Of a stretch of DNA of 42,200 bases, positions 1,951 to 41,130 are shown one piece after another; position 1 is the stretch's first letter, and every line of letters starts with the position of its first letter. A model generated the notes under the pieces. That model was not told the origin of the DNA and did not search any database. It was given only the letters and a program-made list of their open reading frames with translations. Source of the DNA: a virus. Its lineage: Duplodnaviria > Heunggongvirae > Uroviricota > Caudoviricetes. The translations under genes were made by a program, and so were the position numbers. The stretch is taken from the IMG/VR virus record IMGVR_UViG_2522572164_000007. One strand, 5' to 3'.

Positions 1951-2345
1951 ATTTCCTCCTGAGTTGTCCGGGGAATACTGAATCCTCCGGTCTGGCAGTG
2001 TGTGCAGTACTGCTCCCCATAATAATCGTGGTGACATTGTCTGCAGTGCCAGCTGGCTTTACGCACCACGGGTAAGGCATCCGGTACGAATTGCTGCAGA
2101 CGTTTAATCAACTGTATTTCTCTGCGCTCCGGCCTGACATAAGGGCACTGTTGACCGTGCTCTGTCAGCCTGTCGTCAGTGTGTTCAAACCAGGGAAGTT
2201 CAGTGTCGTATTGCGGATGGTATCTGAGTGCACTGCCACACAAGTGGCAGGTGTAGTTAGCATAAGGTGCGGCCTGTGCAGTACGGGCGCCCGTCAGACG
2301 TCCGTTGCCATCAAGAGCGATAAAGGATTTTGCGTACATAGTCAT
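1938..2345 (-). CDS. Cys-rich hypothetical protein (putative zinc-ribbon)
   Basis: 135-aa ORF with CHLCG...PWFEH...CRQCHHDYYGEQYCTHC; tandem with its paralogue, 13-nt overlap. Confidence 0.5.
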   Translation of the reverse strand: MTMYAKSFIALDGNGRLTGARTAQAAPYANYTCHLCGSALRYHPQYDTELPWFEHTDDRLTEHGQQCPYVRPERREIQLIKRLQQFVPDALPVVRKASWHCRQCHHDYYGEQYCTHCQTGGFSIPRTTQEEICEF

Positions 2346-2598
2346 ATACCTCAGCCGCCAGACGACACGCAGGCAACAGCCGTCCCGGTACGGGCAGCGT
2401 GGTCAGGGTGTGAATGGCGGTTCAGTTAAAATCTGGACTGGAGTTTGGGTAAAGCAGGCTGGTTGCTGTTACAGCACTGTGGTTGTCACACAATGGAACA
2501 CTGACGTAAAAAACAGTCAGTGGGCGAGTGGATACATCGTTGCCGCCAGACAACAACCCATACTTTTGGTTTGCCGGATATTGGCGCGCCAGTCGTGC

Positions 2599-3168
2599 TC
2601 AACTCCGGCTACAGCCAAAATTGCGCTCACCGGTGCAGTGAGCTTTGGTATGCTCCTTCGCCAGATAGTCAGCACGTTCCAGCACCTGCTGAAAGCCGGT
2701 GTCATCATTACGCGCCAGCCACACCGCCGGCCAGGCCGGAAAATGCACCAGCGTGGCATGGCACCCGACATCCACTCCCAGGGCACTGCACCACGCCTGT
2801 TTAATCATCCCGGCCAGAGACTCCGGAGCGCGGTAATCACCGGCACGACACCAGGTATCCCGGTTGACCAGCAGCATCAGGTGATAGTGTTTTTTACCTT
2901 TGCACTCCCCAAACTCCCGGGCCCAGACGTAATGCAGGGTTGTGGGATGCACGCGTTTACCTTCCCGATGCTTACGTTTCTGGTAAGCGTCGATTCGGGC
3001 TTTCAGGGCATTGATGAAGCGGGATATCACAGCTGCGTCCGTTGCTGCCGGTACATCCGGGAGACGCAGGTCAACCCGCAATGCCGTCAGGCGGGGATGA
3101 ACATTCAGTGCGTGCCGCACCGTCTCACGAATACGTTGCTGCCAGAAGGGGTTGTATTTGTAGGTCAT
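2599..3168 (-). CDS. YagK/YfjJ-like (inovirus Gp2 family) protein
   Basis: ORF 2599..3240 trimmed to the ATG at 3168 with a GGAGA RBS; family assignment is from memory of E. coli cryptic-prophage YfjJ/YagK proteins. Confidence 0.45.
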   Translation of the reverse strand: MTYKYNPFWQQRIRETVRHALNVHPRLTALRVDLRLPDVPAATDAAVISRFINALKARIDAYQKRKHREGKRVHPTTLHYVWAREFGECKGKKHYHLMLLVNRDTWCRAGDYRAPESLAGMIKQAWCSALGVDVGCHATLVHFPAWPAVWLARNDDTGFQQVLERADYLAKEHTKAHCTGERNFGCSRS

Positions 3169-3333
3169 GGTTAAATCTCCGTATGGTTCATACGGAATAG
3201 CCACGTATAGCGCGGCGATTTTTTTGATACCGATTTGCATTTCATTTGATACCGCTGAAAAACGCCGATACGCAACTTATTTGATACTAAATCGGCGCTT
3301 TTCTTTTGAGTTTTAGAATGAGTTTTTAAGCGC

Positions 3334-4071
3334 TCATTCACTCTCTTTCAAACCAGTTTTAACTGTTTGTGGTTTTGGGTAAGGGTGGACTTTGAATAGC
3401 TTTGTGTTGAGGCGTTTTCTGGCCCTCTTGTTCAGAAACCGGATGTAACGAAACTGTCGGAACTTATGCACACTGGCTCTGTCGATATTAGCCCTCAGAT
3501 GTTCACCTCGTTGTCCGCCTCGTTTAATGGCACTCCTGCAAATCTCGTGATACCACTCGCCATCAAGTTCATAGAATGTTGATTCATGGCTGCCTACATA
3601 ATCAAAATTGCTGGCCTGATACACGACACCAAGACAGCCACAACGCTCATCTGCAAACGACTGAACCCACTGTACCTGCGGATAAAGCTGCCTGATTAGC
3701 TTGAGCGCGTAACTGATTGCCCTTGATTCGGAGTTTCTCGGCATACAGTCATGCATCCATAGCCGGTTAAGCTCCATATATTCTCGGTTCTGCGTACCCG
3801 TTACGACGCGTGCACCACTGTTTGGGTTAAGGGCGTAACCCCATTGCATTACGCCAACAAGTTCCCGTTCTGAAAATATACCCAGATGAAGGTAGGAATT
3901 ATTTACGAAACGGTGGCTGTAATGTTTATTGACGATAACCAGTCTGGCCAGCCAGCAACTTATTGTCTCAACCCGCAACTCACGGGAGCCATAACCAACG
4001 ATATTGTCGTTATAGCGAATAAGTTCAGGCGTGCTGATGATACGGGATGTGACTTGCTTTCTGTTCCCCAC
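3334..4071 (-). CDS. mom: Mom-like DNA modification protein
   Basis: 245-aa ORF immediately downstream of, and overlapping, a Com-like zinc-finger gene at the far end of a Mu-like genome; size fits Mu Mom (about 230 aa). Start codon uncertain. Confidence 0.6.
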
Positions 4072-4225
4072 GACAGGATTTCCTTGTGTATGTGGGGTGC
4101 TCTGTGGCGCTCGGAGATGTGATTTGATTGAGGGTTTTACAGCGCGGACATTTTACTTCCAGATAACTGAAACTGGCCCGTGCCAGTAGCTTATTGCAGT
4201 GTCGGCACCGTATGTTTCGATACAT
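4025..4225 (-). CDS. com: Com-like zinc-finger translational activator of mom
   Basis: ORF 4025..4270 trimmed to the ATG at 4225 (GGAGG upstream). [30 protein letters not shown] resembles the Mu Com motif IRCKNCNKLL...CPRCK. Confidence 0.7.
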
Positions 4226-4261
4226 GGCCGCATAACCTCCTGCTTTGTTGTTGATGCCTTT

Positions 4262-4450
4262 CTCATGCAATCGATCGACAAAAACGATCGATTCGATTTG
4301 TTTAATTGATACAACAAATAGATTTAAAAGTCATCAACAATGATTCAGGGCGGTGATTATTTACTTAAAGAAACGAAGAGTTAGGTGGTGAAAACGATCA
4401 TAAAATGATCATTTTATTGACTTTTTATACAGTGAAGGTAGGATCGCGCG
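4262..4450 (-). promoter_or_regulatory. com-mom upstream regulatory region with clustered GATC (Dam) sites
   Basis: GATC at 4273, 4286, 4396, 4407 and 4442 (five in under 190 bp), directly upstream of com. Mu Pmom is known to be controlled by Dam methylation of upstream GATC sites that affects OxyR binding. Confidence 0.45.
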
Positions 4451-4497
4451 TATATGTAGTATGTTTCAAATCAACAGGATACTACATAAAAGTGAAA

Positions 4498-4523
4498 CCC
4501 AGCATAGCTGGAACTATGCTGGG
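4498..4523 (-). terminator. Candidate rho-independent terminator on the minus strand, upstream of the com-mom promoter
   Basis: Perfect 10-bp stem CCCAGCATAG / CTATGCTGGG with a 6-nt loop; on the minus strand it is followed by UUUCACUUUUAU. Confidence 0.4.
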
Positions 4524-4631
4524 TCAATCTGTAAAAACTTGCATCAATGCTTTACTTCGAGCTCGTGGCGTATCCTATGATATTCCCCGGTCTCCTGTAA
4601 AGCAGAGATGCATAAAAAGGAGATCTTTATC

Positions 4632-4802
4632 ATGGATAAAGAGCCTGTTTGCCCTGCCTGTAAGACTCCCTTACAGCTCATCTATCGCCGTTCTCGATCT
4701 CAAAATGGCAAGACATACAAACCAAAAAATGCTTCCTGTTTCAGGATGCTGATATGTCCTGCCTGTTCTCCCCGGAGGGAAAATACACAAAACGTGCATT
4801 AA
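4632..4802 (+). CDS. Small zinc-ribbon protein (CPxC...CPxC)
   Basis: ORF 4608..4802 trimmed to the ATG at 4632 with an AAGGAG RBS; MDKEPVCPACKTPLQLIYRRS...ICPACS; convergent with the 81-aa minus-strand gene. Confidence 0.45.
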   Translation: MDKEPVCPACKTPLQLIYRRSRSQNGKTYKPKNASCFRMLICPACSPRRENTQNVH

Positions 4803-5358: not shown

Positions 5359-7416
5359 TTATGCCGCAGGGGTATTAACCTCAAGGACAACGCTCTCAAA
5401 AGACACGCCATAAGTTGCCCCTTTGGTGACATCTGTCAGTGTCAGCGTATCTTTGGCAGGGGAAAGTGCATCTTTCACCATCTGGAATGCCTGGCCCGGA
5501 GTGCCATCCAGCACAGGCGTTACCTGGGCACTTCCCGCCGTAAACTTCAGGACAAGTGTATGCCACTGGTTATTGTAGGCTCCAAATGATCCCAGTTTCG
5601 TATTCCCCCCTGTTTTATGGTGCATCAGATTTAACTGGCCGCCTGTTGTCTGGAGATAATACGCCATCAGGAACGGTGTGCCTGTACCACTCATGGTTAC
5701 ACCTTCCGGGACCGTATCGGTGTGGAGGTAAATACCCAGAGCAAACTGGCCTTCTTTTACTTCACCTGACAGACGGAATTTACAGGTCAACTGACCACCA
5801 TGCTTCAGAAGTTCACCGGCTGCATCAGTTCCATGGGTAAGCGTCCAGGTTTTTCCGCTTTGTTTGGATACGGTCAACGCTTTACCTTCGTCCGTCAGCT
5901 GGATTGTACCATCTGTAATTTTCCAGCCCTGAGCCGGGGCTTCTCCTGCTGATGCTTTAAGTGAAAGCAGCGTACGGAGTGACGGGGATGTCGGATGGGG
6001 GGACTCACTGCCTCCTGGCTGACTACCTGTCGGCGCTTCCGGTTTCCCACCCGGCGCGGGCTGAGGCAGGGCTTCACCATCAGGGGCCACACCGGCAATA
6101 AATGCAGAGGTCAGACCTGCATATTTAAGAATTGCTGATGCAAAACGATCTGAGACCAGAAAACGGCGCGCCCAGGAGCTAAAATGGGTTGCCCTGGATG
6201 CTGTTGTCCAGTTGCCATCTCCCCGTGATTCCGCACCATAATACCCGGCAGAAGCGATATCCGGGTCGTGCTCCGGCAGGTTGGTCGCGGTTTTATTACC
6301 GAACTCATCGTGCATCAGTGGAACAAAGTGAATGTTCTCGGAAGCCCGGTTTTTATATCCGCTATAAATGGTTTCATATGCCGCCGGGTTCTTCTCTTTC
6401 CAGTCATAGGTTGTGTCACCACATAACCACGGCACACTGTCTGATGAACCACCAATACACTGACCGGAGAAAGCACCAAGATCCGCACGGAATTTTTTCA
6501 CCATCGCAGTAAACTGGGCACCATGCTGGGCCGGGGTCGCTTTAAGGTCTCCTTCCCCCTGAATCCATACGACAGATAACAGCACATTCTTTGGATTCGC
6601 CTCAAGTGCCGCTTTAGTTCGACTGACAAGATCCTGATACAGTGGGGTATCCACTCCCCAGCGTAGTGACGCCTCGGCTGCACCACTTGCCGGATCGAAT
6701 GAGCCAACTGCGCCGGTTGTAAAAGCAGAGCCGCCACGGGCACAGGGAACCAGTAAAATCCCGGCATCAGCAGGAATCACCGGTAATACTTTTTTCGCAA
6801 TATGAAGTCCCTGCCCCACACAACCATACTGCCCTTTTTTCAGGTCTGCTTTTGGATGGTTCAGCAGACTCATATTCTGAACATCATGAAGGCAGTGATC
6901 TGCTGGAATGATTTCATTGTATTTGCAGGGAATACCTCCGGGGGTTTGTGTATTCCTGCGTGCCAGCTGCATAATACGTGGATCAGGACGATCATAAGAA
7001 TCCGGAAGGGGCAACCCTTCACCATAAGATGAAGCATTGGACTGGCCGGCTATAACAATCACGTAATACCAGGAAGGGGAGCTGGAAGCCGTTTCATTTC
7101 CTGCCGGACGGGTATGTGTTTCTGCATTATCCCAGTCTGACGGTTCAGCAGTACCGGCAACATCAGCACTTAACGGAATGACAGCACCAATACCCGCTCC
7201 GGTAATTTCCACGTTCGGATCACCGGATACTGGCCTTACCCACAGGCAATCCTGTGTATTAAAACTGATGAGACAGTCAGCAAATGTCATTCCTCCTTTC
7301 GTTTCAGCAGGAGGAAAGGGAGCCTCAAGAAATGCCGCTGTACCACCGGAAACTTTAACGGTAAAGTTTCCGGGCATTGATGATAGTTGAACCCATTTGG
7401 ACGTCATAATATTCAT
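5359..7416 (-). CDS. Sialate O-acetylesterase, NanS-p-like (SGNH hydrolase) with extra N- and C-terminal domains
   Basis: 685-aa ORF with YVIVIAGQSNASSYGEG (GQSN block of SGNH esterases); overall architecture resembles the prophage NanS-p esterases of enterohaemorrhagic E. coli. Confidence 0.7.
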   Translation of the reverse strand: MNIMTSKWVQLSSMPGNFTVKVSGGTAAFLEAPFPPAETKGGMTFADCLISFNTQDCLWVRPVSGDPNVEITGAGIGAVIPLSADVAGTAEPSDWDNAETHTRPAGNETASSSPSWYYVIVIAGQSNASSYGEGLPLPDSYDRPDPRIMQLARRNTQTPGGIPCKYNEIIPADHCLHDVQNMSLLNHPKADLKKGQYGCVGQGLHIAKKVLPVIPADAGILLVPCARGGSAFTTGAVGSFDPASGAAEASLRWGVDTPLYQDLVSRTKAALEANPKNVLLSVVWIQGEGDLKATPAQHGAQFTAMVKKFRADLGAFSGQCIGGSSDSVPWLCGDTTYDWKEKNPAAYETIYSGYKNRASENIHFVPLMHDEFGNKTATNLPEHDPDIASAGYYGAESRGDGNWTTASRATHFSSWARRFLVSDRFASAILKYAGLTSAFIAGVAPDGEALPQPAPGGKPEAPTGSQPGGSESPHPTSPSLRTLLSLKASAGEAPAQGWKITDGTIQLTDEGKALTVSKQSGKTWTLTHGTDAAGELLKHGGQLTCKFRLSGEVKEGQFALGIYLHTDTVPEGVTMSGTGTPFLMAYYLQTTGGQLNLMHHKTGGNTKLGSFGAYNNQWHTLVLKFTAGSAQVTPVLDGTPGQAFQMVKDALSPAKDTLTLTDVTKGATYGVSFESVVLEVNTPAA

Positions 7417-7506: not shown

Positions 7507-8067
7507 TTATTTTTCCGAAACGCTCGCAGGATAATAACGATAAAGGGTTGAAAGGCCGATATCAAAAATAAGTGCCACCTGTCTTCGACTGACACCCCCG
7601 GCCAGTAAACGCCCGACCTGCTCGTATTGTTCCTGCGTGAGACGACGGGGTCTGCCGCCGGTTCGTCCCCTTTCACGGGCAGCTGCAAGACCAGCCCGTG
7701 TCCGTTCGACAATTAATTCACGCTCCATTTCTGCCAGCGCACCCATTATGTGAAAAAAGAAGCGCCCCATGGGGGTTGACGTATCAATGTTGTCAGTAAG
7801 ACTACGAAAATTTATCCCCTGTTGCTGTAATTCATCTGTCAGCGCAACAAGGTGGCGCATACTGCGCCCCAGCCTGTCCAGTTTCCAGACCATCAGTGTG
7901 TCACCGGGTTTTAGTTTCTTCAGTGCCCGCTTCAGTCCCGGCCGCTGTGTCGTTTTACCACTCATTTTATCTTCAAAAATCTGCTCACATCCTGCACATT
8001 CCAGCGCATTTCTTTGTAAACCTGTGTTCTGGTCATTTGTTGATACGCGTATATAGCCAATCAGCAT
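7507..8067 (-). CDS. gin: Serine recombinase, DNA invertase Gin/Hin/Pin/Cin family
   Basis: 186 aa; MLIGYIRVSTNDQNTGLQRNAL... is the resolvase/invertase catalytic N-terminus, with a C-terminal HTH (GRPRRL...STLYRY). Confidence 0.9.
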   Translation of the reverse strand: MLIGYIRVSTNDQNTGLQRNALECAGCEQIFEDKMSGKTTQRPGLKRALKKLKPGDTLMVWKLDRLGRSMRHLVALTDELQQQGINFRSLTDNIDTSTPMGRFFFHIMGALAEMERELIVERTRAGLAAARERGRTGGRPRRLTQEQYEQVGRLLAGGVSRRQVALIFDIGLSTLYRYYPASVSEK

Positions 8068-19961: not shown

Positions 19962-20522
19962 TTACAGTTCCTCCGGCGGTTCGACCGCCGTTGTCGTGTT
20001 CCCCGGCAAATCAATATGTGCCTCAAACGGCGGCGTACCGGGCGGCTCCACAAAGGTTTCGTAATGACGCAGGAAGTCGTCCAGCGAGCTGGTATCGGTC
20101 AGCGGTGCGATCATTTCCTCGCAGGAGAAATAAAGCGCATACATCACCGCACCACTGTCCGCCTGGGTTTCGGTGTAACCGTTGACCGCCTTTTCAAAGT
20201 AAAGCGGTGAGGTTTTTTCTGTTCTGAAGCCGTTAAGCACGGCAATCAGCCGGGCCACAATCTGATACAGTCCGGGACGGCTGGCCTCACGCCCGTTGAG
20301 CATGTCGCCGATGACGTAGAACACCCAGTGACTGACCAGGCGACCACGGGTACGGCCTTCACCGGCACCCAGCCAGGCAACGTAGATCGCCGGGGCGTTA
20401 ATCAGCATGGTGCGCAGTACGCTGTCGCTCCAGTCGCCGGGATGCGTGTCAACAGACACCAGTTCATTCCCGAAATACTCACGGATACGGGCGATGTATG
20501 CCTGTTCGGTTTCCGTAATCAT
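19962..20522 (-). CDS. Head-tail joining/virion protein (Mu gp37-like)
   Basis: 186-aa ORF; position. Confidence 0.5.
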   Translation of the reverse strand: MITETEQAYIARIREYFGNELVSVDTHPGDWSDSVLRTMLINAPAIYVAWLGAGEGRTRGRLVSHWVFYVIGDMLNGREASRPGLYQIVARLIAVLNGFRTEKTSPLYFEKAVNGYTETQADSGAVMYALYFSCEEMIAPLTDTSSLDDFLRHYETFVEPPGTPPFEAHIDLPGNTTTAVEPPEEL

Positions 20523-20938
20523 ATGAAGCCCTTCTGGTTGCGCCCGAATACCGCTGCATCAGACTGAACCTGTGGTAAATCCCCGGATTCAGGGGCCGCA
20601 CCGTTCGTATCCACACCGACCGGCACATTGCCGTTCATGACATCTTTCAGCCAGGCCAGCGCTTCACGGTAACGGTCACGCGCCTGATCGGAGGCTCGCT
20701 GATCGCACAGGTAATAAAAGGCAATCGCGCAACAGTGCTGAACAAGAACGGCCGGAATAACCTCCAGCGGCAACGTGTAACGGGCGGACAGATAGCTGTC
20801 GATAAGGGCTGACGCATCTGTCAGCGCCCGGTTCAGCTTGCGCGTGTCCGGCTCATCCGAACGGGGCACAGCCAGTAACGGCCTGAGCAAATCCTCGCGG
20901 TAACGCGCCCGCATATCGGTTTCAGTGGCGTAATTCAT
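20519..20938 (-). CDS. Head-tail connector protein (Mu gp36-like)
   Basis: 139-aa ORF; position. Confidence 0.5.
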   Translation of the reverse strand: MNYATETDMRARYREDLLRPLLAVPRSDEPDTRKLNRALTDASALIDSYLSARYTLPLEVIPAVLVQHCCAIAFYYLCDQRASDQARDRYREALAWLKDVMNGNVPVGVDTNGAAPESGDLPQVQSDAAVFGRNQKGFI

Positions 20939-21315
20939 GCACGGGCCTGTTCCGCTTTGTTACCGGTCTTTTTCCGGGGAGCATCCTGTCCGGCTTCGGC
21001 TTCGGCTTCGGCTTCGGCTTCGGCTTCGGCTTCGGCTAAATCTGTACCGGCCACTGCATGAACCACACCCGCCACGCTCCCCGCATCATCAGCAGACGTC
21101 TGTAGTATTCGCACAGTGAGGCATGGCTCCTCCTCCAGTCGGGCAAGCTGCTCCGGGGTGACCTCAACCTGCTGACGTCCACGCGTGAACAGGAACCCCG
21201 CACGACGAAACGCCGAACGACTGCAACGCACTTCTGCCAGCACCGTGACAGAATTGTCACCACTGACCTGAAGACCTGAATCATCTGTTGCTGCCACAGT
21301 GTGATGTTCATTCAT
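20935..21315 (-). CDS. Hypothetical head-associated protein containing an (Ala-Glu)n repeat
   Basis: 126-aa ORF immediately downstream of the major capsid gene; contains AEAEAEAEAEAEAEA. Confidence 0.5.
   Translation of the reverse strand: MNEHHTVAATDDSGLQVSGDNSVTVLAEVRCSRSAFRRAGFLFTRGRQQVEVTPEQLARLEEEPCLTVRILQTSADDAGSVAGVVHAVAGTDLAEAEAEAEAEAEAEAGQDAPRKKTGNKAEQARA
20992..21033. repeat. Perfect hexanucleotide tandem repeat (GGCTTC) x7
   Basis: Read directly from the sequence; in-frame within CDS 20935..21315, encoding (Glu-Ala)n on the minus strand. Confidence 0.95.
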
Positions 21316-21358: not shown

Positions 21359-22306
21359 TTACAGATAATCCGCGACAACCAGCTCCAGCTTGCCCTTCAT
21401 CTCGTTAGAGACGGTTGCGTTTCCGTCTGCGAACAGTTCACGCTCCAGCAGCTGCACCGCCTGTTTTTCCAGCGAGGTGGGGACAACAATATGGGTGGGT
21501 TTAATGCCGAGTTTGCGGCCACCGTCAGCGGTAAATTCGCGCATGGCTGACCAGCCGTGCCACAGTGCATCCAGCGTCAGCGGTGACTGCATCATGTAGG
21601 CCATCTGCCAGAAGCCGTAGCCCACATTGCGACGGGCGGATGCACCAAACACAAATTCGTTATCGGTGAATGCGCGACCTTCATCGACTTTGGTCTGGGC
21701 AACCAGTTCAGCCTTACGGCGATCCTGATAAATCAGCGGTTTTACCGCGCGGGAGCAGTCAAGCAGATACCAGGCCGGACCGCTGTAATCAGCCTGTGCG
21801 CCGACAGAGCCGGTTTTTGCCACAAACATATTGCTGACCATCTGCGCATCCCCGGAGCCATCCACTTTGGGGTAAACCGGATGTTCGGTATCAAAGAAGT
21901 TCTGACCGTCATAGCAGGCCGCACTGATCCCGTCACGCAGGGCAGCAAAGACCAGCTCATCCGGTTGTACCGCCGCAGCGCGCCCCATCTCCTGGAACAA
22001 CGGGGAATAAATACCGAGGTTGTCGTCTTCGAAGTCATCGCGGCTAATGGCGACAGTGCCTTCAAAAGTTTTGTTCACGATGGCATAGCCATAGGCTTTC
22101 ATCTTCTCGATGACGCGGGAGCCGATCCACTCACGGAACTGCGGGAACTGCCCCAGCCAGCCGTAGGTGTTGGATTTCGATGTGGAGGGCACGGTCATCG
22201 CAATTTTTTTATACTGCGACGGGGCCATGGACATCCCGGCCTGAAAATCAGAACGGTAGCCCGTCATCAGGGCGGTGATCATCGCCGGTGTAATCGGGGT
22301 AGGCAT
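21359..22306 (-). CDS. Major capsid protein (Mu T-like)
   Basis: 315-aa ORF immediately downstream of the protease/scaffold gene; size matches Mu T. Confidence 0.75.
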   Translation of the reverse strand: MPTPITPAMITALMTGYRSDFQAGMSMAPSQYKKIAMTVPSTSKSNTYGWLGQFPQFREWIGSRVIEKMKAYGYAIVNKTFEGTVAISRDDFEDDNLGIYSPLFQEMGRAAAVQPDELVFAALRDGISAACYDGQNFFDTEHPVYPKVDGSGDAQMVSNMFVAKTGSVGAQADYSGPAWYLLDCSRAVKPLIYQDRRKAELVAQTKVDEGRAFTDNEFVFGASARRNVGYGFWQMAYMMQSPLTLDALWHGWSAMREFTADGGRKLGIKPTHIVVPTSLEKQAVQLLERELFADGNATVSNEMKGKLELVVADYL

Positions 22307-23430
22307 TATTGCATTTCCTCTTTCATTTTCAGGAACTCGGCTTCGGTTTTACCCAGCAGTTTGGCGGCCGCGATATCTTCAGCCGACAGCGCAGCGGTGG
22401 CAGTCTTTTTATCCGGCACGGTCACGGTGTCGGTCTGAAGAGAGGTCAGGGCCGCAACCGGCTGGCGGGCGTCAAGCTGTGCAGAAAGTGCCGCAACGCC
22501 AATCTGCCCGCCCAGTTGTTCCAGATAGCCGCGTTCGCTTTTGAAGATGCGCCCTTCGGATTCAGCCTTGTCCAGCACCTGCTCCAGCGTGGTGCTGCCG
22601 TGCTGCGCCGACAGCGCAACGTATTCGGTACGCAGGGCGTTATACGTTTCAACGGGCACGTATTTCGTCAGATCAATAATGCCGCCAGCCGGTGTGCCTT
22701 TTGCGGTTTCCAGCTCTGCCGACAGACTGGCGACCTGTGTTTTCAGGTTGTCGTGTGCATCCGCACGGGTTTTGATCCCGGTGAGGGCAGACAGCGCCGC
22801 CGTGCCCAGCTCCGGCGTAAATTCGTCACCGTCAGCCACGGTCAGACCGAGCGCCGTCAGCAACTGGCGTAATTGCTCATTCATGGAGGTATCCTTTAAA
22901 GGAGGGTTTAAGGCGTTATAAAGGTCATCCGCCGACAGCGCGGCGACAGGATTCATGCCGGTCAGACCGGGGTCACCGGTAATAGCCAGCATCCGAAGTT
23001 CGACAGGTTCGCCGGTGTTCTCGTCATAGCCAATCACCGGTGAAAACCAGGGGAATTCGTTATTACGCAGATGTTCAAGGGCCGGAGGGTTCCACTTCGG
23101 GCGCACCTCGAAGCCACGCTCTTCACTGAAGCGAAAATTCTCCGGTGAGGCCATCACAAAACCGGCAGCCGGTGCCTGATGCCCCTTAATCAGGGTCTGG
23201 TGGTTGTAGTCAATTTTCACCGGCTGATTGAGCGCCACAACCCGGGATACCATGCGCTCAACGGTCGCACGGTTAATCAGCCAGCCCTCGGCCGGTTTTT
23301 CCGGGCGACCGTCACGGGCCTTTACCCGACCGGCTGGCATGATCTGACACCAGTCACCGTCCCCGTCTGCGGACAGGCTGATGGCATTCAGAATGGCATA
23401 AGCAAGTTTGGGCGTGTTTTTCGTCTTCAT
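22306..23430 (-). CDS. Head protease/scaffold protein (Mu I-like)
   Basis: 374-aa ORF; Ala/Leu-rich coiled-coil C-terminal half; position. Confidence 0.7.
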   Translation of the reverse strand: MKTKNTPKLAYAILNAISLSADGDGDWCQIMPAGRVKARDGRPEKPAEGWLINRATVERMVSRVVALNQPVKIDYNHQTLIKGHQAPAAGFVMASPENFRFSEERGFEVRPKWNPPALEHLRNNEFPWFSPVIGYDENTGEPVELRMLAITGDPGLTGMNPVAALSADDLYNALNPPLKDTSMNEQLRQLLTALGLTVADGDEFTPELGTAALSALTGIKTRADAHDNLKTQVASLSAELETAKGTPAGGIIDLTKYVPVETYNALRTEYVALSAQHGSTTLEQVLDKAESEGRIFKSERGYLEQLGGQIGVAALSAQLDARQPVAALTSLQTDTVTVPDKKTATAALSAEDIAAAKLLGKTEAEFLKMKEEMQ

Positions 23431-23606: not shown

Positions 23607-24080
23607 TTAAGGCGTTTCTGTGGCCTTTTTAAAGCGTTTTCTGATTTCGTCCATGATCTCCTGCTCTGCCACCTGATCAAAGCCCATATACGGGCGTGCG
23701 CCAATGGCCGCCGGTCCCGGTGGCATACCAGGCAGGCCACCCCACTGATGAATGGCCGCATAAGGCTCATTTGATCCAATCAGCGCCCAGGTATCGCCAT
23801 AATCCGTGGTCAGGCGTCGGGCCAGATCGCCGTTCAGCGTCAGGATTTTGCCGGGCATGTATCCCTTACGGGTACGCCACTTGCGGTAAGGATCTGACCA
23901 GTCATGCCAGCGTTCGCCGTCCGGCTCTTTTTCCTGTTCAAACGCCATTTCTGACGATGACAGAAGACTCGCCGCCACACTGCGGGCCAGGTCTTTCCCT
24001 CCACCCACAAACTGAAGCCGGGCAAAGACCCGCTGGAGACGCGTAACGTCAACAACGACAGCGGCATCAATGGATGACAT
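23607..24080 (-). CDS. Virion morphogenesis protein (Mu G-like)
   Basis: 157-aa ORF between the F-like and I-like genes. Confidence 0.65.
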   Translation of the reverse strand: MSSIDAAVVVDVTRLQRVFARLQFVGGGKDLARSVAASLLSSSEMAFEQEKEPDGERWHDWSDPYRKWRTRKGYMPGKILTLNGDLARRLTTDYGDTWALIGSNEPYAAIHQWGGLPGMPPGPAAIGARPYMGFDQVAEQEIMDEIRKRFKKATETP

Positions 24081-24201
24081 ATTGCCTCCGCATAAAGGAT
24101 GAATATAAAATAAACAGGCGGTCAGTGTACGCTTAACTGGTAAAGTCGGTGCCTGCCTCCGGGTGGATCATGTATGCGGGTTCAACCCCCGCCACTGACC
24201 G

Positions 24202-25533
24202 TTAATCAATATCTCCTTCCAGTACCTCAAGCATTCCACCCCGGATATCCGATTTCAGCTTATCCATATTGATAACCCGGTAAGCATTCACAATCACATC
24301 CAGTTTATCCGGCTGACGCTTCAGGCTGTACGGCGCATTAACGGCAATCTGCACACTGCTATCCTTACTTTCCACGATATACATCAGATTGTTGTGGCGT
24401 TTGTCCCACAGCACCGCTTTTGGCTTTGCCAGCATTGCCGGTAATCGACCGAAATCCTCCGGCGTCAGGGCGATACCGTCATTCTGATGTTTCATGCTGT
24501 CCGCATGGAGCACATTTTTACCGCTCATCGCCAGCAGGCGGGCCGGTGGCGTTCCCGTCCGGCTTTCCACCGCCTGCGCAATGCTTTCGGTCATAAAGCC
24601 CAGCGTGCGGATATCGTTACCGCCTCGCCGGGTTTTCATGATGTTTTTTGCCCAGATGCGGAACGCCAGCTGCCGCTCCGGGCTGTTGTTCATCTCCTGC
24701 ACTACCATTTCCCGCAGCGCCGGGCTTTTCACCTCGATCAGTTTACGGATCAACGCCTGGTCTGTGCCGAACGCCGCCGAGCCGGGGTTATATGACCAGC
24801 CCACATCCGGTGTCATGGTTCTGGTGCCATCTGAATATGTGGTCACCGGCATTTCTCTGACTTCTCCGGTCTGCTTATCCACGCCAGCCTCAACATTGCG
24901 GGTGGAGAGATGATCCTGACCGGATGAAACAGACAGCCCCATCGCATCCAGACGGGCCTGAGACAATGGCCGGACACGGCAGCGACAGTTCCAGCCATTG
25001 GGCGGGTAGTGTGTATTCCAGAACGGATCGTCATAGCGGAATACCAGCCCGTTAAGGGCGGAATGTGCCGGGCGGGTGCGGCTGTCCATCACCGCCACAT
25101 ACTGCCAGAACGGATGCGTGTCCGTGTTGTTCATCATCTGCGTGTAACGCCCGGCATTGTAAGCCACACGGGTGTTCACGTTGTAAATCAGCGCCAGACG
25201 GCGGGGACTGCCCAGCTGCACTTCTTCCGCGTTACCGGCACTGTCCACCACAATCTGTTTTCCCCACCATCCCAGCTTTTGCAGGCGGGGTGTCAGCGTG
25301 CGAATAAATGCTTTCTGTGAAATCCCCTCATCAACAGCACGCTGCACTTCCGCCTGTAGTGTGGTCAGTACGTCCAGGCGTGCCACTTTTGCCGCCGTGA
25401 ATGAACGGGCATGAACATCCGCGTCTGTTTCGAACCAGTTCCAGCTGATATGCGCCCCTTTGGCGCGGAAGTATGCCACCGCCTCTTTTGAGGCAAGTGT
25501 GGCGGCATAACCTAAATCAATCCCTTGTGCCAT
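24202..25533 (-). CDS. Head morphogenesis protein (Mu F-like)
   Basis: 443-aa ORF overlapping the portal gene end. Confidence 0.7.
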   Translation of the reverse strand: MAQGIDLGYAATLASKEAVAYFRAKGAHISWNWFETDADVHARSFTAAKVARLDVLTTLQAEVQRAVDEGISQKAFIRTLTPRLQKLGWWGKQIVVDSAGNAEEVQLGSPRRLALIYNVNTRVAYNAGRYTQMMNNTDTHPFWQYVAVMDSRTRPAHSALNGLVFRYDDPFWNTHYPPNGWNCRCRVRPLSQARLDAMGLSVSSGQDHLSTRNVEAGVDKQTGEVREMPVTTYSDGTRTMTPDVGWSYNPGSAAFGTDQALIRKLIEVKSPALREMVVQEMNNSPERQLAFRIWAKNIMKTRRGGNDIRTLGFMTESIAQAVESRTGTPPARLLAMSGKNVLHADSMKHQNDGIALTPEDFGRLPAMLAKPKAVLWDKRHNNLMYIVESKDSSVQIAVNAPYSLKRQPDKLDVIVNAYRVINMDKLKSDIRGGMLEVLEGDID

Positions 25534-37807: not shown

Positions 37808-38035
37808 TTAGCTGACTTGTTTCGCACCAACAGAACGGCATATTCCGCTGTAAACGTCTGTCGCACCTTCGCGATCAAGTCCGGCAGATATCACCATTCG
37901 TGTGCGGTCATTAAATTCAAAAAGTAAATCGCCACATGCTTTATTTTCGGCCAGTGAAATCACCTTCACGTTATCGAAATTAACCAGGTAAAAGCGTCCG
38001 TAAATATCAGGAATATTAAATACCGCCATAATCAC
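37808..38035 (-). CDS. Hypothetical early protein at the position of Mu kil
   Basis: 75-aa ORF overlapping the end of the MuB-like gene (ATGA); Mu kil occupies this position and size, but identity is not shown by sequence. Confidence 0.4.
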   Translation of the reverse strand: MIMAVFNIPDIYGRFYLVNFDNVKVISLAENKACGDLLFEFNDRTRMVISAGLDREGATDVYSGICRSVGAKQVS

Positions 38036-38964
38036 ACCTGTGAGAGTAATTCAGGGTTGGTATAAACCTCTTTAAAGGCCGCATTAATATGTTTTTCTGT
38101 CAGCGCCGCGCCTTCACCGCTGGCGGTGAGCCACGCCTGGTTAAGCGTATGTGTCAGAACGCGTAATGCTCCCGGCTTTTCAGCGATAGCCTGCATGACG
38201 GCCAGCTCGGCCTCACCACTGATACCCCATGCCCTGGCAATGGCCAGCACATCCGCCTTTTTGGCCTTGCGAAGTTGTTTTGTACGGGCAAGACGGCTGA
38301 ACAGGCGCGATAAATCATCAAAGGCGCGGCGTCCACCTTTAAACAATCCGCGCGGGTTACCAATAAGCACCATCCCGATCCCCGTGGCGTCCTGAATTGC
38401 CCGGAGTTGCTCCAGACCGTCAATACCAAGATGATCCGCCTCATCCACAATCACCAGTCCACGCGTTCCCGTCAGGCGACGGCGGATGGCGCGGGATAAT
38501 GCCCCTTTGTTCGCGCGGGTGTAATCAATCCCCAGCGCATCGGCCAGCTCCAGCAGACACTCCGTGACGCTGGAGTGCGCGGGTGACAGGGTGATCATCC
38601 AGGTGTTTGGTTGCTCCTGGCAGTAATTACGGGCAGTGGCCGTTTTACCCACACCCGGTACGCCCACAATAACGTTAATACAGCCCATCAGGCGAACCGC
38701 CTGAAACAGTGCGCGCAGCTCCTGGACTGTCTGAGTTTCCACAAACTGCGGCGGTTCCGGCAGTGCGCTTTGTTTATTCCAGTTCTCATACCAGGAGCGC
38801 AGGGAAGCAGCCACAGCGGCGTTATCGCCTTTATATTTCCCCTTGCGGAAAGCCGATAATGTGCCGTCGGAAATTCCCGCCTCTCTGGCGATGGCATACT
38901 GCGTCAGCACGCCGCCATCAATAAGTTCATCAATGGTCTTGATTACATCGTTTATATCGGTCAT
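38032..38964 (-). CDS. B: MuB-like AAA+ ATPase (target DNA activator)
   Basis: 310 aa; Walker A GVPGVGKT, Walker B LVIVDEADHL, N-terminal HTH; immediately downstream of the transposase. Confidence 0.85.
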   Translation of the reverse strand: MTDINDVIKTIDELIDGGVLTQYAIAREAGISDGTLSAFRKGKYKGDNAAVAASLRSWYENWNKQSALPEPPQFVETQTVQELRALFQAVRLMGCINVIVGVPGVGKTATARNYCQEQPNTWMITLSPAHSSVTECLLELADALGIDYTRANKGALSRAIRRRLTGTRGLVIVDEADHLGIDGLEQLRAIQDATGIGMVLIGNPRGLFKGGRRAFDDLSRLFSRLARTKQLRKAKKADVLAIARAWGISGEAELAVMQAIAEKPGALRVLTHTLNQAWLTASGEGAALTEKHINAAFKEVYTNPELLSQV

Positions 38965-39039: not shown

Positions 39040-41130
39040 TCAGGCCAGAGGGTCATTTTCTTTTAATTTCGCTTCGAGCAACTGCAATCCCCGCTGGAAA
39101 TTACGCTCGTATTCTTCATCAGGCTCATCATCAACGGCAGGTTGCTGAACGGTCACCGTATTACCCACAGGGCGGTATATGTTTTCCAGCCAGGGCTCCT
39201 GCGGCTTGTGCTCCAGCACGTTGACAACCTCATCCTCGGCATCACGGATTTTTTCCTCTGCGCGTTTACGCATACCTTTAAGGCGTTGCTGCTGTTTGTA
39301 GTATTCCGCGCTGACCGGGAAGGCTTCGCGTTTATTGCCGTCCCATACCGCCTCGCAAATCACGCTGCCATCCGGGCGACGTACGGTAATTCGTTCGGCA
39401 TCATGAATGTCATAGCTGATAAGCACCTTGCGGCCATGCTCATCACTCAGCTCGGGCGCGTAGTAAATATTATTCAGCCAGCGTATTTCACAGCGTCTTA
39501 CAGGGCGTTCCACCATTGGCCGGAACATATCCCGCAGCTCAACATCGGACAGCCATTCAATTTCCGTGTCCTCTTCTGCCAGGCGTTTTTTTCTGAACTC
39601 CGCCGGGCTGTAATGCTTCCCGTTCGGCTTCATGGGTAATTCATCGTGCGGCCGGTTGTTGTACCACTCAACGCCATCACGAATGGCATCAATCAGTTCA
39701 GACCAGGACGGTAAATCACGCATCGCTGACTGTTGCCGGGCGTTCAGCCGTTTGCCCTGTTGCAGGGCGGTAAATGCCGAGCGTAAATCGCGGTTGGTTT
39801 TGCGTAACGTCTCGCGATCTGCACCTTTCCCGAAATAGGTGCGGTATTTACGGGCTATGCGCATCGGTAATGTGCGGTTAAGCCGTTCGATAATGCCTCG
39901 CCCCTGCGGATTACCGGCAATCCCGGTCGGGTGATTAATCCCCAGTCGCGGCAGTATCCCCACAACCTCCTTATCCAGGACGTCGGCGGTTTCCCCGGAG
40001 CCGTTATCCGAGTAATACAGAAACGGTTTGCCGTGATGGCGAATGCCGTGCTGTATGGCACCGGCTACGGCGAAAACATTTTCAGCCAGGTCAAGGCTCC
40101 AGCCCACCACAAAGCGCGTGCCACCGTCGATAACAAAGGTCACTTCCGGTGCAAATGGCCGACCGTGAACCGGGTGTGCGCATTTCAGCTTCATGCCGTG
40201 ACCGTCACCAATCCAGACATAATTCACCGGCATTCTGGACCAGTCGCGGCGCGTGAATCCCTCAAGCTGGCGGTATTCACTGCCGGTCACCCGGCCTTTT
40301 TGTTTCACCACTTCCGGCAGTTTCTTCATTGCGCGGCGGATGGTGTCGTAAGACGGCATGATATCGAGCATATAAGGCTCATCAGCGTGCCGGTGCTGCC
40401 ATTCAGCGACAAAATCCTCGTAAGCCTCGGTCATTGGTCGGCCGTTTGACTGGCGATACTGCGCCAGAAATTCGGGCAGCCAGTTAATATCTTCGGCTTT
40501 TATTTCCTGGCGCTTACCAGGTGCCAGCAAAAGCAGGCGTTCAGCGGCGTTCTGCGCCTTGTTAAAGGCTGCAATCCAGCGTTTCAGCGTGATTTCACTC
40601 AACGCACGGCTGTTTCCCTTTTTGGCGTTCGCCGTCTCAACCATTGCCACAATGCGCTCGTCCAGTTGCGAACGTGCCAGGTTGTCAACGATAAACCGGA
40701 TAGCCTTCGCACAGCTGAAACCAGGTTGTTGCGCGACTTTCAGAACTTCGCTGACGATCGCGATTCGTGCATCAGCCACCTGGCGCTGGTTTTCAGTCAG
40801 GGCATTGAGGCGTTCAACCATCAGTTGTGGTGATCCGCGATATGCCTCCACCGCATCAACCACGGCAGGCGAGCGTCTGGCCTTTGTCACCACCGGAGCC
40901 GGTGATTCATCAGCTTTTTGCGTCATCAGTTGAAGGGCATAACGTTCACGCAATACTTGTTGCGCGCCAGAAGGCAAACAATCGATATTAAATTCGATTG
41001 CTTTTGTCCCCTTACGTTTGCGTAACATGGCTGCATTTCCCGCAGCTGCTTTTGTGAGTCGATGGCGAATGTTATGTTCCATCATTGGTAAATCAGGAAG
41101 ACCAACACATTCTTTTGCTGTTACCCACAT
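39040..41130 (-). CDS. A: MuA-like DDE transposase
   Basis: 696-aa ORF; size and position between ner and B. Confidence 0.85.
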   Translation of the reverse strand: MWVTAKECVGLPDLPMMEHNIRHRLTKAAAGNAAMLRKRKGTKAIEFNIDCLPSGAQQVLRERYALQLMTQKADESPAPVVTKARRSPAVVDAVEAYRGSPQLMVERLNALTENQRQVADARIAIVSEVLKVAQQPGFSCAKAIRFIVDNLARSQLDERIVAMVETANAKKGNSRALSEITLKRWIAAFNKAQNAAERLLLLAPGKRQEIKAEDINWLPEFLAQYRQSNGRPMTEAYEDFVAEWQHRHADEPYMLDIMPSYDTIRRAMKKLPEVVKQKGRVTGSEYRQLEGFTRRDWSRMPVNYVWIGDGHGMKLKCAHPVHGRPFAPEVTFVIDGGTRFVVGWSLDLAENVFAVAGAIQHGIRHHGKPFLYYSDNGSGETADVLDKEVVGILPRLGINHPTGIAGNPQGRGIIERLNRTLPMRIARKYRTYFGKGADRETLRKTNRDLRSAFTALQQGKRLNARQQSAMRDLPSWSELIDAIRDGVEWYNNRPHDELPMKPNGKHYSPAEFRKKRLAEEDTEIEWLSDVELRDMFRPMVERPVRRCEIRWLNNIYYAPELSDEHGRKVLISYDIHDAERITVRRPDGSVICEAVWDGNKREAFPVSAEYYKQQQRLKGMRKRAEEKIRDAEDEVVNVLEHKPQEPWLENIYRPVGNTVTVQQPAVDDEPDEEYERNFQRGLQLLEAKLKENDPLA

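Follow-up and report, generated by a model that had tools for sequence, protein, structure and literature searches.

The window, meaning the whole 42,200-nucleotide stretch of IMG/VR record IMGVR_UViG_2522572164_000007, carries on its minus strand a series of late genes resembling those of phage Mu, and within this series a short gene containing a perfect hexanucleotide repeat lies between the genes for the major head subunit and a head-tail adaptor. The array, the gene that bears it and the genes that define its surroundings are the following.

3334 to 4071: Mom
7507 to 8067: Gin-type invertase
20519 to 20938, minus strand: homologue of the Mu gp36 head-tail adaptor, downstream of the repeat-bearing gene (Pfam PF07030, E 3.5e-35)
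20935 to 21315, minus strand: 126-aa coding sequence, truncated homologue of Mu gp35 and FluMu HI1506, 'HI1506-related protein' (ORF, Pfam, PDB 2OUT, Foldseek, tblastn, RefSeq annotation of relatives)
20991 to 21037, minus strand: perfect hexanucleotide array, (GGCTTC)7.8 as read on the plus strand (Tandem Repeats Finder, unit count, shuffle control)
21359 to 22306, minus strand: Mu-like major head subunit gpT, upstream of the repeat-bearing gene (Pfam PF10124, E 6.6e-119)
22306 to 23430, minus strand: Mu-like protease I
38032 to 38964: Mu transposase B
39040 to 41130: Mu transposase A

The order of gpT, repeat-bearing gene and gp36 is the same as in Mu, where gene 35 lies between T and gp36. 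The TGA of the repeat-bearing gene overlaps the ATG of gp36 as ATGA (20935..20938), and beyond gp36 the minus strand continues with gp37, a DUF2635 protein and the tail sheath. Taken together, the Mu late genes, transposases A and B, the Gin-type invertase and Mom indicate that the window holds a Mu-like prophage of the Sp18 type in essentially complete form. Such a prophage has been described in E. coli O157 Sakai (PMC2669165; PMC7430833), and the repeat is mentioned neither in the account of Sp18 (PMC2669165) nor in that of O157 repeats and mobile elements (PMC7430833).

Tandem Repeats Finder delimits a 47-bp perfect period-6 tract at 20991..21037, comprising 7.8 copies with 100% matches, 0 indels and a score of 94, and direct reading divides 20992..21033 into exactly seven GGCTTC units followed by GGC, in agreement with the in-frame (GGCTTC)7 repeat reported at 20992-21033 in the preliminary description. 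The same program detects no other array of more than 4 copies in the window. When the window was shuffled 300 times, the longest perfect period-6 run averaged 13.3 bp and reached at most 17 bp, compared with the 47 bp observed, and the repeat is confirmed as real and far beyond chance. The minus strand is the coding strand, on which the unit reads GCC-GAA and encodes Ala-Glu, such that residues 94-108 of the 126-aa ORF are AEAEAEAEAEAEAEA, i.e. (Ala-Glu)7-Ala, and each repeat unit adds one Ala-Glu to the protein. An (Arg-Leu)n ORF on the plus strand (20937..21119) was considered as a gene and rejected as a by-product of the repeat. The repeat-bearing gene also contains, in its disordered N-terminal part, another small perfect direct repeat, (GACCTGAA)x2 at 21265..21280, which is short enough to be due to chance.

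The encoded protein contains a FluMu_N domain (PF17891) at residues 36-72, scoring 35.3 bits against the Pfam gathering threshold of 25.8. Its sole sequence match in the PDB is 2OUT, in which the structure of H. influenzae FluMu HI1506 was determined by NMR; the match covers residues 25-92, with an E of 1.5e-4. 2OUT is also the only credible fold match in a Foldseek search of the PDB (probability 1.00), and connector, decoration and scaffold proteins are absent from the fold matches. Gene 35 of Mu, D108 and SfMu is matched by tblastn, Mu gp35 being 55.6% identical over residues 23-58, and the product of this gene is annotated in the Mu record as 'head-to-tail connector complex protein'. Matches in PHROGs were to families of unknown function, no NCBIfam model matched the repeat-bearing protein, and a literature search for HI1506 found no papers.

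When the window protein is aligned with Mu gp35, a homologue from Edwardsiella and eight diverse representatives, the usual layout of the family becomes apparent: a variable N-terminus, FluMu_N, a linker that is again variable and, at the C-terminus, a conserved domain of ~50 residues (…NxRIRxAVAxL…GxPKVxAV…LG…Q…AAL). This three-helix domain is present in Mu gp35, the Edwardsiella protein (P0084) and P0086-P0096 and is missing from the window protein, and all E. coli relatives of the latter likewise lack it, with 18-21 basic residues remaining after the array. As judged from the alignment, the window protein is a truncated member of the Mu gp35/HI1506 family. With Mu gp35 and HI1506 it shares a homologous N-terminal domain, the position between T and gp36 and a flexible segment following the N-domain; it differs in that Mu gp35 and its aligned relatives continue into the C-terminal domain and have no tandem repeat, whereas here the Ala-Glu array is followed by an 18-aa basic tail. 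Two further regions can be marked along the coding sequence.

21088 to 21252, minus strand: folded core, residues 22-76 (beta-hairpin, helix, strand), corresponding to the FluMu_N domain (AlphaFold2 pLDDT 82-90; Pfam match)
20938 to 20991, minus strand: 18-aa basic C-terminal tail GQDAPRKKTGNKAEQARA after the array, net charge about +3 (translation, alignment, charge, pLDDT below 50)

In the AlphaFold2 model, computed from a 14-sequence alignment, residues 77-126 have a pLDDT below 50 and no secondary structure, the match to 2OUT is likewise confined to residues 25-92, and the array is accordingly predicted to sit in an intrinsically disordered segment C-terminal to the sole folded domain. At pH 7 the protein has a net charge of about -3 in the 1-unit allele, falling to -20 when 18 units are present. 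Where the array sits, Mu gp35 reads 'LAEAGG' and the shortest E. coli alleles read 'DLAEAGQD', and the array probably arose in the linker by expansion of an ancestral AEA motif, seeded at the site of 'LAEAGG'. The tail occupies the place at which relatives start their three-helix domain and aligns weakly with that start; going by this weak alignment, the gene appears as if truncated against the start of gp36.

The preliminary description had spoken of a linker in a head-associated virion protein, and both terms need qualification. A flexible segment between folded domains does exist in Mu gp35 and the full-length relatives, but with the C-terminal domain absent from the E. coli lineage, the tract is a disordered C-terminal tail rather than an inter-domain linker, followed here by 18 basic residues. 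For HI1506, the notion of a linker between two folded domains is taken from the title of PDB entry 2OUT, which calls it a two-domain protein, and from the NMR study, in which an unstructured linker of about 30 residues reportedly joins the two domains; the family is also reported to have been proposed there to bind nucleic acid through basic patches. As for the virion, gene position and the annotation of Mu gp35 point to a putative head-associated protein, whereas gp35 is not resolved in the 2025 cryo-EM structure of the Mu virion, the capsid of which has no cement proteins (PMC11915804). A role as capsid decoration or cement protein finds no support, given this absence from Mu, 2OUT as the sole PDB sequence match and the lack of a decoration fold among the structural matches. 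In the Mu-like siphophage JBD30, gp39, a minor capsid or decoration protein with a beta-tadpole fold, is encoded directly after the major capsid gene (PMC11445458). Like the gene for gp39, the window gene belongs to a transposable phage and comes directly after the major capsid gene, and neither the PDB sequence search nor Foldseek found a sequence or fold match between the two proteins.

The variability of the array was assessed with a query of 1,282 bp around the gene, which was compared with 5,426 complete E. coli genomes and matched 233 records in 232 of them, including O157:H7, O111 and O121, with the chromosomal position of the prophage varying among the matching genomes. The matches amount to 271 places, as some genomes have 2-4 copies of the prophage. 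Sampling at even steps down the ranking of these 233 records gave 59 places, which fall into 27 length classes spanning -30 to +66 nt relative to the window. Length differences within the repeat gene are multiples of 3 in all 59 sampled alleles; the only two differences that are not, a gp36 frameshift and a 1-nt intergenic difference, leave the repeat gene in frame. Perfect units in the ten complete genomes that were fetched number 18, 15, 13, 14, 13, 14, 13, 2, 7 and 4, next to 7 in the window. Among these genomes are the cattle isolates 118, 138, 116, 130, 135 and 141, which have 15, 13, 14, 13, 14 and 13 units, respectively; the 11,237 bp that flank the array show 0 mismatches among them, and their chromosomes measure 5,453,897 to 5,455,348 bp. 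Other pairs of loci show 18 vs 4 units with 2 flank mismatches and 2 vs 7 units with 1, the flank comparison being limited to pairs with 0-2 mismatches, since position-by-position counts across indels (1980-4785) are meaningless and were dropped. In protein clusters and IMG/VR contigs the array has 1 to 16 units, which brings the overall range among relatives to 1 to at least 18 units. The comparison of copy number among related prophages that had been suggested at the outset thus finds it far from invariant; the expectation that every change would be in frame, lengthening or shortening the protein without switching the gene off, holds for 59 of 59 sampled E. coli alleles, and the idea of a length-variable Ala-Glu spacer gains support from the whole-unit variation among relatives.

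Short and degenerate alleles accompany the long and pure ones. Alleles of 1 unit are common and widespread, one protein cluster of this kind having 150 member sequences (P0057), and are also found in contigs L023 and L025-L027. Derived units (AG, EV, ES, ET and AK) are present in the protein clusters and IMG/VR contigs and have themselves been duplicated, as in AEAEAEAGAGAGAG. In one E. coli protein of 119 aa, encoded on a 484-kb contig (P0073), the tract is read as (Lys-Pro)n ('...VAVWWFMQPAGTKPKPKPDEGYSRKKTG...') and a compensating frameshift restores the normal C-terminus. The derived units and the (Lys-Pro)n reading imply that the constraint on the sequence of the segment is weak. In IMG/VR and the protein libraries, on which the distribution outside E. 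coli-type phages is based, the hexamer array is confined to the truncated E. coli-type lineage, and no hexamer repeat is found in the relatives that keep the C-terminal domain (Mu, L037-L043). Contigs (L019 and L020) and many NCBI proteins labelled 'partial' (among them P0056, P0062, P0064, P0068 and P0069) end in or at the array; short-read assemblies evidently break at long alleles, and copy number is therefore probably under-reported in drafts. In E. coli OkiPb01679 (L044, 201..621), gp36 is annotated as frameshifted next to an intact repeat gene of 136 aa; this length implies an allele of about 12 units, and the prophage copy may be defective.

Multilocus variable-number tandem repeat typing (MLVA) of enterohaemorrhagic E. 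coli (EHEC) makes use of a locus, EHC-5, that belongs to the scheme of Izumiya 2010 for O157, O26 and O111 and has been in routine typing use since 2010, its primers being reprinted in S5 Table of PMC10062581. Both primers find exact sites in the window.

20952 to 20974, plus strand: EHC-5 reverse primer site, CCGCTTTGTTACCGGTCTTTTTC, 0 mismatches (primer from S5 Table of PMC10062581)
21086 to 21108, minus strand: EHC-5 forward primer site, ATACTACAGACGTCTGCTGATGA, 0 mismatches (primer from S5 Table of PMC10062581)

Each primer has a single site in the window, against a chance expectation of 0.00, and the two sites are convergent and flank the array, predicting a 157-bp amplicon (20952..21108) with the array inside. 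The same table gives 34 primers for the other 17 MLVA loci, and not one of these matches the window. Because both EHC-5 primers match exactly and bracket the array, the array, on the evidence of the primers as reprinted in PMC10062581, is the already known EHC-5 VNTR, and the window differs from the published locus solely in its allele of 7 units. In a Japanese O157 MLVA study, most isolates gave no amplification at EHC-5 and the rest were highly variable (PMC10062581). Entries in S2 Table of that study include repeat numbers of 2, 3, 5, 6, 7, 9, 10, 11, 12, 13 and 14, as well as the isolates CEC18128 and CEC18136, which have 5 vs 9 repeats at EHC-5 and are identical at 16 other loci (PMC10062581). 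The polymorphism and frequent absence among strains that characterise EHC-5 are found for the array as well, in the genome counts and in published typing. Literature searches for the GGCTTC motif with MLVA or O157, and for a Mu-like VNTR in O157, returned nothing relevant, and a gene or protein-level consequence of EHC-5 is not discussed in the typing literature examined.

These observations are well accounted for, and in our judgement probably correctly so, by regarding the array as the EHC-5 VNTR in a truncated gp35/HI1506-family gene of an Sp18-type prophage, with a length polymorphism that is driven by slippage and largely neutral. Slipped-strand mispairing while the chromosome of the lysogen is replicated would add and remove units, at a rate that would be much higher than that of point substitution. 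That alleles differ despite identical or near-identical flanks of ~11 kb argues that the array outpaces point substitutions during the residence of the phage as a prophage. The length changes would be tolerated since they fall in an unstructured segment and the unit length is divisible by three; we infer from this that they are largely neutral, and tolerated, largely neutral changes would make the locus work as an epidemiological marker and not as a switch.

A switch is what the architecture of the locus might otherwise suggest, as phase-variable contingency loci classically have a perfect simple-sequence repeat within their coding region, and the ATGA overlap with the start of gp36 would allow slippage to be thought of as toggling either the gene itself or the translationally coupled gp36. 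In the contingency loci of Haemophilus and Neisseria, perfect short coding repeats undergo slipped-strand mispairing, the unit is not a multiple of 3 and expression is toggled, whereas in the window array only the length of the protein changes. With a unit of 6 bp, whole-unit slippage leaves the frame unaffected, as seen in every one of the 59 sampled alleles, and the array stops 53 nt before the start codon of gp36 and hence does not overlap the expected ribosome-binding region. Since the unit length is a multiple of 3 and does not shift the frame, a phase-variation switch is excluded, and the chance that the locus acts in this manner is negligible. It is also very improbable that the copy-number differences are errors of sequencing or assembly in a low-complexity tract. 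Several short-read contigs and many 'partial' NCBI proteins do end inside the array, indicating that assemblers have trouble with it, and some differences between long-read assemblies could be assembly noise, but complete long-read genomes show clean whole-unit differences between otherwise identical flanks, and MLVA by PCR fragment length, in which the locus has long been routinely used, yields the same allele range (PMC10062581). As PCR fragment data are independent of genome assembly, artefact is ruled out as a general explanation.

Adaptive tuning, the main rival, in which the length and charge of the acidic Ala-Glu tract would be selected as a rapidly adjustable property of the gp35-like protein, is unlikely, though it draws on several features of the alleles. 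Acting as a DNA mimic or an electrostatic spacer, the tract could, for instance, modulate the binding of the basic tail or the folded domain to DNA or to the connector, and slippage would then endow the phage population with functional heterogeneity. Very pure arrays persist, with as many as 18 units, and the 13-18 perfectly pure units in O157-type prophages could reflect selection for a long acidic tract; the tract directly adjoins the basic tail with its charge of about +3, and the change in net charge from -3 to -20 across alleles could matter if the protein family binds nucleic acid. Nonetheless, different alleles occur in near-clonal lysogens, where the gene is one of the silent late genes of the resident prophage, implying that changes arise without phage-level selection, while 1-unit alleles are common and widespread and both the point-mutated units (AG, EV, ES, ET, AK) and the (Lys-Pro)n allele are tolerated. 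We also know of no phenotype for Mu gp35, which counts against tuning. A more specific proposal, that the length of the acidic disordered spacer governs the contact that a connector-associated gp35 makes with DNA or the neck through its basic tail or its basic N-domain, is decidedly improbable; if such a selected electrostatic spacer were real, slippage in the prophage would pre-generate virions differing in their head-completion or DNA-retention properties. The interest of the array at the level of the protein hinges on whether tract length affects the function of Mu gp35-family proteins, and its meaning at that level is probably small.

Under the slippage-driven, largely neutral polymorphism favoured here, a routine EHEC typing marker turns out to be a coding repeat, borne by one of the late genes of a transposable Mu-like prophage, and this would explain both the frequent 'null' alleles of EHC-5 and its very fast change. 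The locus also illustrates neatly how a disordered part of a protein takes up large in-frame changes in length, the number of Ala-Glu units ranging from 1 to at least 18. VNTRs such as O157-3, -9, -17, -19, -25 and -37 are likewise built of 6-bp repeat units. With EHC-5 they share a presumed origin of variation in slippage, their use in typing and their inclusion in the same scheme (PMC10062581). Unlike them, EHC-5 is carried by a transposable Mu-like prophage found at varied chromosomal sites (PMC7430833), and because it rides on this element it is absent from most strains and differs in chromosomal site.

Two further features of the prophage lie at a distance from the array. Between the Gin-type invertase and Mom sits a 685-aa ORF (5359..7416, minus strand) with a sialic-acid-specific acetylesterase domain (SASA, PF03629) and DUF6645, which resembles the NanS-p esterases of EHEC prophages and looks like cargo of the Mu-like prophage. 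A match to the Rfam tRNA model at 24121..24200 on the plus strand (30.9 bits against a gathering score of 29, E 1.4e-4), antisense to the late operon, lies in the 120-nt gap between the Mu G-like gene (23607..24080) and the F-like gene (24202..25533). ARAGORN finds no tRNA anywhere in the window, and RefSeq annotates a 'tRNA-OTHER' at the equivalent place in the relatives L001, L008, L009 and L010 and not in L002-L007; the match could be a degenerate or unusual tRNA-like element.
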